Shown here: one piece after another, positions 11-1,119 of the stretch
Position numbering within the stretch: position 1 is the first letter of the stretch
Layout: each line of letters starts with the position of its first letter
Source of the DNA: Escherichia coli
GTDB taxonomy: Bacteria; Pseudomonadota; Gammaproteobacteria; Enterobacterales; Enterobacteriaceae
Strand: one strand, 5' to 3'
Assembly: GCF_003334315.1 (NCBI RefSeq)
Contig: NZ_QOWR01000124.1
DNA: 1,119 nucleotides
Translations under genes and position numbers: made by a program
The notes under the pieces: model-generated
Database searches by the model: none
What the model was told of the DNA's origin: nothing
The model's input: only the letters and a program-made list of their open reading frames with translations

Positions 11-1119
11 ATGTCAACCGGATTACGTTTCACACTGGAAGTGGACGGCCTGCCGCCGGATGCTTTTGCGGTGGTTTCCTTTCATCTGAACCAGTCACTC
101 TCTTCGCTCTTTTCCCTCGATCTCTCCCTGGTCAGCCAGCAGTTTCTCTCCCTTGAATTTGCGCAGGTGCTGGACAAAATGGCCTACCTGACGATATGGC
201 AGGGCGATGAAGTACAGCGCCGGGTGAAAGGCGTGGTGACCTGGTTTGAACTCGGGGAGAACGACAAAAACCAGATGCTGTACAGCATGAAGGTGCACCC
301 GCCGCTGTGGCGTGCCGGTCTGCGCCAGAACTTCCGTATCTTCCAGAACGAGGACATCAAAAGCATCCTCGGCACGATGTTGCAGGAAAACGGGGTGACC
401 GAATGGAGTCCGCTGTTCAGCGAGCCGCATCCTTCCCGTGAGTTTTGTGTCCAGTACGGTGAGACTGATTACGATTTCCTGTGCCGGATGGCGGCGGAGG
501 AAGGCATCTTCTTTTATGAGGAGCATGCTTACAAAAGTACCGACCAGAGCCTGGTGCTGTGCGACACAGTCCGCCATCTGCCCGAATCTTTTGAAATCCC
601 ATGGAACCCGAACACCCGTACCGAGGTGAGCACCCTCTGCATCAGCCAGTTCCGCTACAGCGCACAAATCCGCCCTTCTTCCGTGGTGACCAAAGACTAC
701 ACCTTTAAACGCCCCGGCTGGGCCGGACGTTTTGAACAGGAAGGCCAGCACCAGGACTACCAGCGCACGCAGTATGAAGTGTATGACTACCCCGGACGTT
801 TCAAGAGCGCCCACGGGCAGAACTTTGCCCGCTGGCAGATGGACGGCTGGCGAAACAACGCAGAAACCGCGCGGGGAATGGGCCGCTCGCCGGAGATATG
901 GCCGGGACGGCGAATTGTGCTGACGGGGCATCCGCAGGCGAACCTGAACCGGGAATGGCAGGTGGTGGCAAGTGAACTGCACGGCGAACAGCCACAGGCG
1001 GTGCCAGGACGGCAGGGAGCGGGGACGGCGCTGGAGAACCATTTTGCGGTGATCCCGGCAGACAGAACATGGCGACCACAGCCGTTGCTGAAACCGCTGG
1101 TCGACGGCCCGCAGAGCGC
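11..1119 (+). CDS. vgrG: Type VI secretion system spike protein VgrG (TssI), N-terminal portion; 3'-partial, truncated by the window end (last complete codon ends at 1117)
   Basis: Seen in sequence: ATG at 11-13 opens a frame with no stop through 1119 (369 complete codons, hand-translated). Translation starts MSTGLRFTLEVDGLPPDAFAVVSFHLNQSLSSLFSLDLSLVSQQFLSLEFAQVLDKMAYLTIWQGDEVQRRVKGVVTWFELGENDKNQMLYSMKVHPPLWRAGLRQNFRIFQNEDIKSILGTMLQENGVTEWSPLFSEPHPSREFCVQYGETDYDFLCRMAAEEGIFFYEEH... and ends ...NREWQVVASELHGEQPQAVPGRQGAGTALENHFAVIPADRTWRPQPLLKPLVDGPQSA. Established knowledge: I recognise this as the conserved N-terminal region of enterobacterial VgrG, largely the phage gp27-like domain and reaching about the start of the gp5-like OB-fold. 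This is recall, not a database hit. A GGAGG motif lies 5 nt upstream of the ATG. Codon usage is G/C-rich at third positions and TTA/CTA/TCA are absent from codon 30 onward. Confidence 0.92.
   Translation, partial: MSTGLRFTLEVDGLPPDAFAVVSFHLNQSLSSLFSLDLSLVSQQFLSLEFAQVLDKMAYLTIWQGDEVQRRVKGVVTWFELGENDKNQMLYSMKVHPPLWRAGLRQNFRIFQNEDIKSILGTMLQENGVTEWSPLFSEPHPSREFCVQYGETDYDFLCRMAAEEGIFFYEEHAYKSTDQSLVLCDTVRHLPESFEIPWNPNTRTEVSTLCISQFRYSAQIRPSSVVTKDYTFKRPGWAGRFEQEGQHQDYQRTQYEVYDYPGRFKSAHGQNFARWQMDGWRNNAETARGMGRSPEIWPGRRIVLTGHPQANLNREWQVVASELHGEQPQAVPGRQGAGTALENHFAVIPADRTWRPQPLLKPLVDGPQS

Follow-up and report, generated by a model that had tools for sequence, protein, structure and literature searches.

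The window, by which the whole analysed stretch of 1,119 nucleotides is meant, contains a ribosome-binding site followed by the 5' part of a single gene, vgrG. The reading frame begins with an ATG at position 11 and remains open through the last base without a stop codon. The coordinates of all features are collected in Table 1.

Table 1. Features of the 1,119-nucleotide window with their positions, strand and basis of assignment.
Feature	Positions	Strand	Basis
Ribosome-binding site GGAGG	1..5	+	Sequence; spaced 5 nt from the ATG; the exact vgrG-paralog repeat begins at position 1
vgrG 5' part: 369 complete codons and the first 2 bases of codon 370, without a stop	11..1119	+	Translation; TIGR03361 332.8 bits; TIGR01646 238 bits
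gp27-like baseplate hub module, Pfam Phage_GPD, aa 29-327	95..991	+	Pfam scan of a full-length protein with an identical prefix, E 6.1e-75
Linker from the gp27-like module to the gp5-like OB fold, aa 328-369	992..1119	+	Domain limits in the full-length protein
Antisense 315-aa ORF, rejected as a gene and judged a vgrG shadow ORF	95..1042	-	ORF list; GC by codon position

Gene content of the window

The 369-aa product of the window exceeds the cut-off of the TIGR03361 profile (TssI/VgrG) of 186.35 bits by a wide margin and covers profile positions 1-362 of 513; therefore, even the conserved core of VgrG is incomplete by approximately 30%. On its own, the window product is recognized by TIGR03361 as the N-terminal part of the T6SS spike protein VgrG/TssI, and its gp27-like hub domain is identified by Phage_GPD in a full-length protein. 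The remaining architecture was taken from full-length VgrG proteins with an identical prefix, for which Pfam places Phage_GPD at aa 29-327, the OB fold (Phage_base_V) at aa 384-450 and the gp5 beta-helix at aa 467-621, with Gp5_trimer_C at aa 467-576. These full-length proteins match TIGR03361 over positions 1-512 of 513. The OB fold and the C-terminal beta-helix lie outside of the window and are present in both of the full-length VgrG proteins that share the prefix.

From the domain limits of the full-length proteins, bases 1000-1119 (aa 331-369) belong to the linker that joins the gp27-like module to the OB fold. There is nothing unusual in these bases themselves, and they are of note only in that the window ends where the first differences between the vgrG paralogs begin. 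The original prediction had described the window as a VgrG N-terminus that stops before the variable C-terminus, with which both the domain limits and the TIGR03361 match agree. It had also considered the visible part of the gene to be unremarkable, as is borne out by the ordinary linker at its 3' end.

The vgrG frame has a GC content of 0.718 at codon position 3. On the opposite strand, the 315-aa ORF has a GC content by codon position of 0.731/0.415/0.614 that mirrors the sense frame, with a peak at its own position 1. Based on GC content by codon position, this ORF and a second antisense ORF of 92 aa were rejected as genes and are considered to be shadow ORFs. No RNA families were identified in the window by an Rfam scan (E <= 1). 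A repeat search of the window produced no meaningful internal repeats, since the single weak 16-nt inverted pair that was returned was judged to be a chance occurrence.

Chromosomal context of the identical copies

Of 5426 complete E. coli genomes, 3448 contain a match to the window sequence, at a median of 2 and up to 4 places per genome. A match of 100% identity is seen in 18 complete RefSeq records of E. coli, which annotate the sequence as VgrG. Five perfect copies were inspected and these are distributed over two loci: the copies of HS30-1, 13C1065T, cM2a and AH65 at the RhsE locus, and a further copy of AH65 at the cusS locus. All five belong to intact genes encoding proteins of either 702 or 633 aa. 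The gene order at the RhsE locus of the four genomes is yncH, the 702-aa vgrG, an Rhs core protein, dsORF-e4, IS remnants, ydcC and pptA. At the cusS locus of AH65, the order is cusS, the 633-aa vgrG, a DcrB-related gene, a 1505-aa Rhs, two small ORFs, ISAs1 and nfrB. At least 80% of the cusS island query was covered in 2249 genomes.

Many genomes have a third copy, in keeping with the upper count of 4 places per genome, and the similarity of the core-cluster copy also begins at window base 1. From these two observations, the window might be taken for the vgrG of the main T6SS-2 cluster (EHEC vgrG3 type), in which case the downstream sequence would be the core-cluster PAAR-Rhs. This origin is exceedingly unlikely, as every examined 100% match is found at the yncH or cusS islands and the core-cluster copy of 13C1065T is 93.4% identical over bases 1-748 only. 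On the strength of the latter comparison, the main-cluster vgrG3 was rejected as the source of the window.

Both sites appear in the catalogue of Jackson 2009, where the RhsE site is locus 6 (yncG to pptA) and the cusS site is locus 4 (nfrB to cusS) (PMC2935791). The vgrG1/z0707-eagR-rhsF and vgrG2/z2262-rhsE islands of EHEC EDL933 have also been described, and the three VgrG proteins of this strain are at least 90% identical (PMC7216683). Both continuations of the window are thus described loci, and no undescribed system is present at the level of architecture. K-12 was set aside as a reference since it has no copy of the window, only rhsE' and ydcD.

The original prediction anticipated a DUF1795-type adaptor, PAAR or Rhs proteins, and small ORFs downstream of the window, and it advised that the sequence be extended in this direction. 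The predicted kinds of cargo are seen in complete genomes with the identical 1119 bases; however, the extension leads into two known loci and not into a single continuation. Any undescribed effector had been placed by the original prediction 3' of position 1119. Cargo does lie there, but the architectures of both continuations were already described. What lies downstream of the window therefore has two answers that are unresolvable from this contig alone. While the gene and both of its loci were known before and the window itself presents nothing new, the useful addition is its recognition as a two-copy repeat with two alternative, described continuations, each leading to a different Rhs toxin in a textbook T6SS cargo arrangement.

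Boundaries of the repeat

The edges of the window were determined from an alignment of an RhsE-type copy (L001 or L002) with a cusS-type copy (L005 or L009). The exact match between the two types extends 0 bases past either end of the window. On the 5' side, the base directly before position 1 differs, with ...TTTTCAC in the RhsE-locus copy and ...TTTTACT in the cusS-locus copy. On the 3' side, position 1120 is the first downstream mismatch between the paralogs, a synonymous C/T difference (GCC/GCT), making position 1119 the 3' edge of the repeat. Since there is no extension past either end, the window is the maximal exact repeat between the two paralog types. A k-mer assembler emits a maximal exact repeat as a separate short contig. 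Given that the ends of the window coincide with the first paralog differences, the window is most likely a collapsed repeat contig of a short-read assembly that would not be extendable within its own assembly. We infer this strongly from the sequence comparison, which is not the same as a demonstration.

The same truncation recurs in other assemblies. Exactly the same 369-aa truncated product is encoded on at least 24 public contigs (ENA, JGI, Logan) from several assemblers. Ten of these contigs were read and, entering from either the yncH or the cusS flank, every one ends at base 1119; this common end is partly by construction as the contig look-up returns only contigs that break at 1117-1119, and it is the number of contigs, their independence and the two flanks that are informative. 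Among the complete genomes inspected, none has two perfect copies that also differ at positions 0 and 1120. The two perfect copies of AH65 both have a T at position 1120, and the second copy in 13C1065T has one mismatch to the window, at position 478.

Were the ends of the window arbitrary cuts from a longer record, their coincidence with the paralog differences would be due to chance and unique downstream sequence would exist. This explanation is very unlikely. Both ends fall precisely on the first paralog mismatch, with the start being the first upstream base that is shared, and two such single-base coincidences are hardly expected by chance. Independent assemblies also break at the same base. 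Overall, it is highly probable that the window consists of the ribosome-binding site and first 369 codons of the E. coli T6SS spike gene vgrG, that this segment is a repeat found at two orphan vgrG-rhs islands, and that it was likely collapsed during assembly.

Divergence of the two VgrG proteins

The two VgrG proteins are identical to approximately aa 399, present a handful of differences to approximately aa 510, and are unrelated beyond this point (702 vs 633 aa). The cargo-specific C-terminus of VgrG starts at approximately aa 510, about 420 nt past the end of the window. The perfect identity of the 5' module may be attributed to gene conversion between the copies. In AH65, the RhsE-locus vgrG (L008:15285-17393) is a mosaic that is cusS-type at gene nt 1110-1206 and 1407-1410, and RhsE-type elsewhere. 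From its sequence, the mosaic suggests gene conversion between paralogs that are about 1 Mb apart.

With respect to function, the gp27-like hub module and linker encoded by the window would build the common base of a trimeric spike on the Hcp tube. The choice of cargo would be set by VgrG sequence outside of the window, with each VgrG followed by its own effector set: the e4 Rhs and dsORF-e4 at the RhsE locus, and an Eag chaperone and prePAAR Rhs at the cusS locus. Loading of each Rhs onto its own VgrG is putative, as is any activity in secretion.

Cargo at the cusS locus

The 153-aa ORF at the cusS locus is a DcrB/DUF1795 protein (Pfam DcrB PF08786, 1.3e-26). The N-terminus of the cusS-locus Rhs contains prePAAR_I (4.4e-05), PAAR_motif (2.9e-10) and DUF6531 (7.5e-12) matches. 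Class I prePAAR effectors are recognized by a prePAAR motif, a TM segment, a PAAR domain and a DUF1795 gene immediately upstream, all of which are found at this locus. The cusS-locus cargo is the known arrangement of an Eag chaperone with a class I prePAAR effector.

The toxin end of this Rhs differs in its state of preservation. In AH65, the cusS-locus Rhs (L005:11421-15938) has a tip of 35 aa after the DPLGL motif, which is followed by ORFs of 86 and 95 aa without a family match. The toxin end of the AH65 protein may be displaced or truncated. The cusS-locus Rhs of 13C1065T is frameshifted and cut by ISAs1. Given the short tip in AH65 and the broken gene in 13C1065T, those genomes that are nearest to the window have a toxin end that is either variable or decayed.

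Cargo at the RhsE locus

The RhsE-locus Rhs scores 2766.9 bits against the RHS core equivalog NF041261 (cut-off 2000). It has a short PAAR-like N-terminus, a DUF6531 match and YD_repeat_2x matches in 6 stretches, and its core ends in DPIGL-(18)-DPLGL, consistent with an RHS core protein. The core is followed by a 144-aa tip, e4. Adjoining the 3' side of the Rhs gene is dsORF-e4, which encodes 131 aa with a lipoprotein signal and the lipobox LCGC, making it a candidate lipoprotein immunity protein. The e4 tip and dsORF-e4 are present together in 1373 of 5426 complete genomes, about a quarter of the total with O157:H7 included, and are at least 99% identical in nearly all of them.

An A8-to-A7 change splits dsORF-e4 in O157:H7 and 13C1065T, while the 131-aa frame is intact in HS30-1. 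From a comparison of the two forms (L002:21406-21800 vs L001:21406-21801), the loss of one A at gene nt 166-173 produces ORFs of 61 aa and 69 aa beside an Rhs gene that is intact. In a sample of 25 e4-bearing genomes taken evenly, about 11 had a split dsORF-e4 annotation, O157:H7 among them. The split could represent phase variation or a loss of immunity.

The e4 tip (searched as Rhs residues 1201-1402) has no Pfam family match at E <= 0.001 and none in NCBIfam, and no sequence match in the PDB at E <= 1. The matches to dsORF-e4 are marginal (DUF5851, 8.8e-4; DUF3887, 2.4e-3; DUF4019, 3.5e-3) and were not relied upon. Among 1.84 billion proteins, the e4 tip has 22 cluster representatives; the longer ones that were read all follow an Rhs DPxGL motif, and the rest are short fragments. 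An AlphaFold2 model calculated from an 11-sequence alignment is all-beta (pLDDT = 76.5). When searched with Foldseek, the same fold was found to recur at the C-termini of Rhs proteins in many genera with sequence identities of 15-27%.

Structural alignments also relate the e4 model to the Vap proteins of Rhodococcus equi at 9-10% identity. Vap proteins fold into eight-stranded barrels whose surface is rich in glycine (PMC4118825), and VapA binds and permeabilises membranes (PMC10100859). The e4 tip is 16% glycine and has four conserved cysteines and no classical TM helix. As judged by sequence, the e4 tip was not accepted as a member of the Vap family given the low identity of the structural alignments and the lack of a Pfam or PDB sequence match. 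A modelling proposal in which the RhsE tip resembles the S-layer protein RsaA has been made (PMC7216683); this resemblance was not supported by the fold searches performed here.

Taking the Vap-like fold prediction together with the lipoprotein partner, the e4 tip might tentatively be regarded as an unnamed toxin family with a predicted Vap-like eight-stranded beta-barrel that would be membrane-active from the periplasm, as opposed to a cytoplasmic enzyme. We consider this reading to be a possibility that is somewhat doubtful at present. No literature was found on dsORF-e4 or on a link between Vap and Rhs proteins. If the Vap-like fold is true, an interbacterial Rhs toxin would be connected with a fold that has until now been known from an actinomycete virulence factor that permeabilises membranes. 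This lead lies outside of the window and is linked to it through one of the two contexts only. The e4 tip and its lipoprotein partner are uncharacterised and very common, and constitute the single item from this analysis that is worth the time of a specialist.

State of the islands and the T6SS core

Next to several perfect copies of the window, the Rhs gene is frameshifted or truncated. When judged at the aspV T6SS-2 cluster, the islands have the appearance of orphan modules in decay in those lineages that are nearest to the window. In the aspV T6SS-2 cluster of 13C1065T (L011:3708-21590), tssI carries a frameshift, tssJ is truncated, and the annotation lists neither tssK nor tssL nor clpV. 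In AH65, what is left of T6SS-2 (L022:39132-48974) is hcp, vasL, tssM, tssA and a tagO fragment, with an Rhs fragment adjoining them. The orphan vgrG-rhs islands persist in both of these genomes without an obvious firing apparatus at aspV.

Decay may also affect vgrG itself. The original prediction had named a truncation of vgrG soon after position 1119 as an observation that would count against it, and such a truncation does occur in a related lineage. In XJ6.2, vgrG breaks off at gene nt 1245 (1255 in window numbering) and runs directly into a 5'-truncated rhsE with ydcD behind it, and in K-12 the RhsE locus has lost all of vgrG. By analogy, the window could stem from a locus in decay, with a vgrG that breaks off soon after 1119, is fused to an Rhs fragment and lacks an intact cargo-defining C-terminus. 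There is little probability of this, however, since 6 positions distinguish the XJ6.2 copy from the window and the five inspected copies with 100% identity are all in intact genes. Furthermore, the window ends at the paralog difference at 1120 and not at the XJ6.2 deletion junction. A collapsed repeat remains the preferred explanation.

The XJ6.2 locus (L003:6892-10766), in which the truncated vgrG is joined to an rhsE with a K-12-type tip and ydcD, resembles a halfway stage from the intact island to the K-12 remnant.

Comparison with known systems

The E. coli VgrG proteins are homologous to solved VgrG spikes (P. aeruginosa VgrG1, PDB: 4mtk and 4uhv; PDB: 7q5p) over aa 13-546 with E values of 1.7e-98 to 2e-101, the match to 4mtk having an E value of 1.7e-98. 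The gp27-like, OB and beta-helix domains occur in the same order. In contrast, the 120-190 C-terminal residues that follow the beta-helix are specific to each E. coli paralog, and they are located outside of the window.

At the RhsE locus, K-12 differs from the intact islands in retaining only a 5'-truncated rhsE with a different tip and ydcD, without vgrG. In EHEC EDL933, VgrG1 (z0707), EagR (z0706) and RhsF (z0705) occupy the same cusS-nfrB site as the 633-aa vgrG and present the same order of vgrG, DcrB/DUF1795 and prePAAR-TM-PAAR-Rhs. Similarly, EDL933 VgrG2 (z2262) and RhsE (z2257-z2261) are found at the same site as the 702-aa vgrG in the same order of vgrG, Rhs core and a small ORF with a lipoprotein signal, with no difference in architecture. 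This 3' part of vgrG is shared with O157:H7 genomes at 98.7% identity, and the e4 tip plus dsORF at 99.5%.
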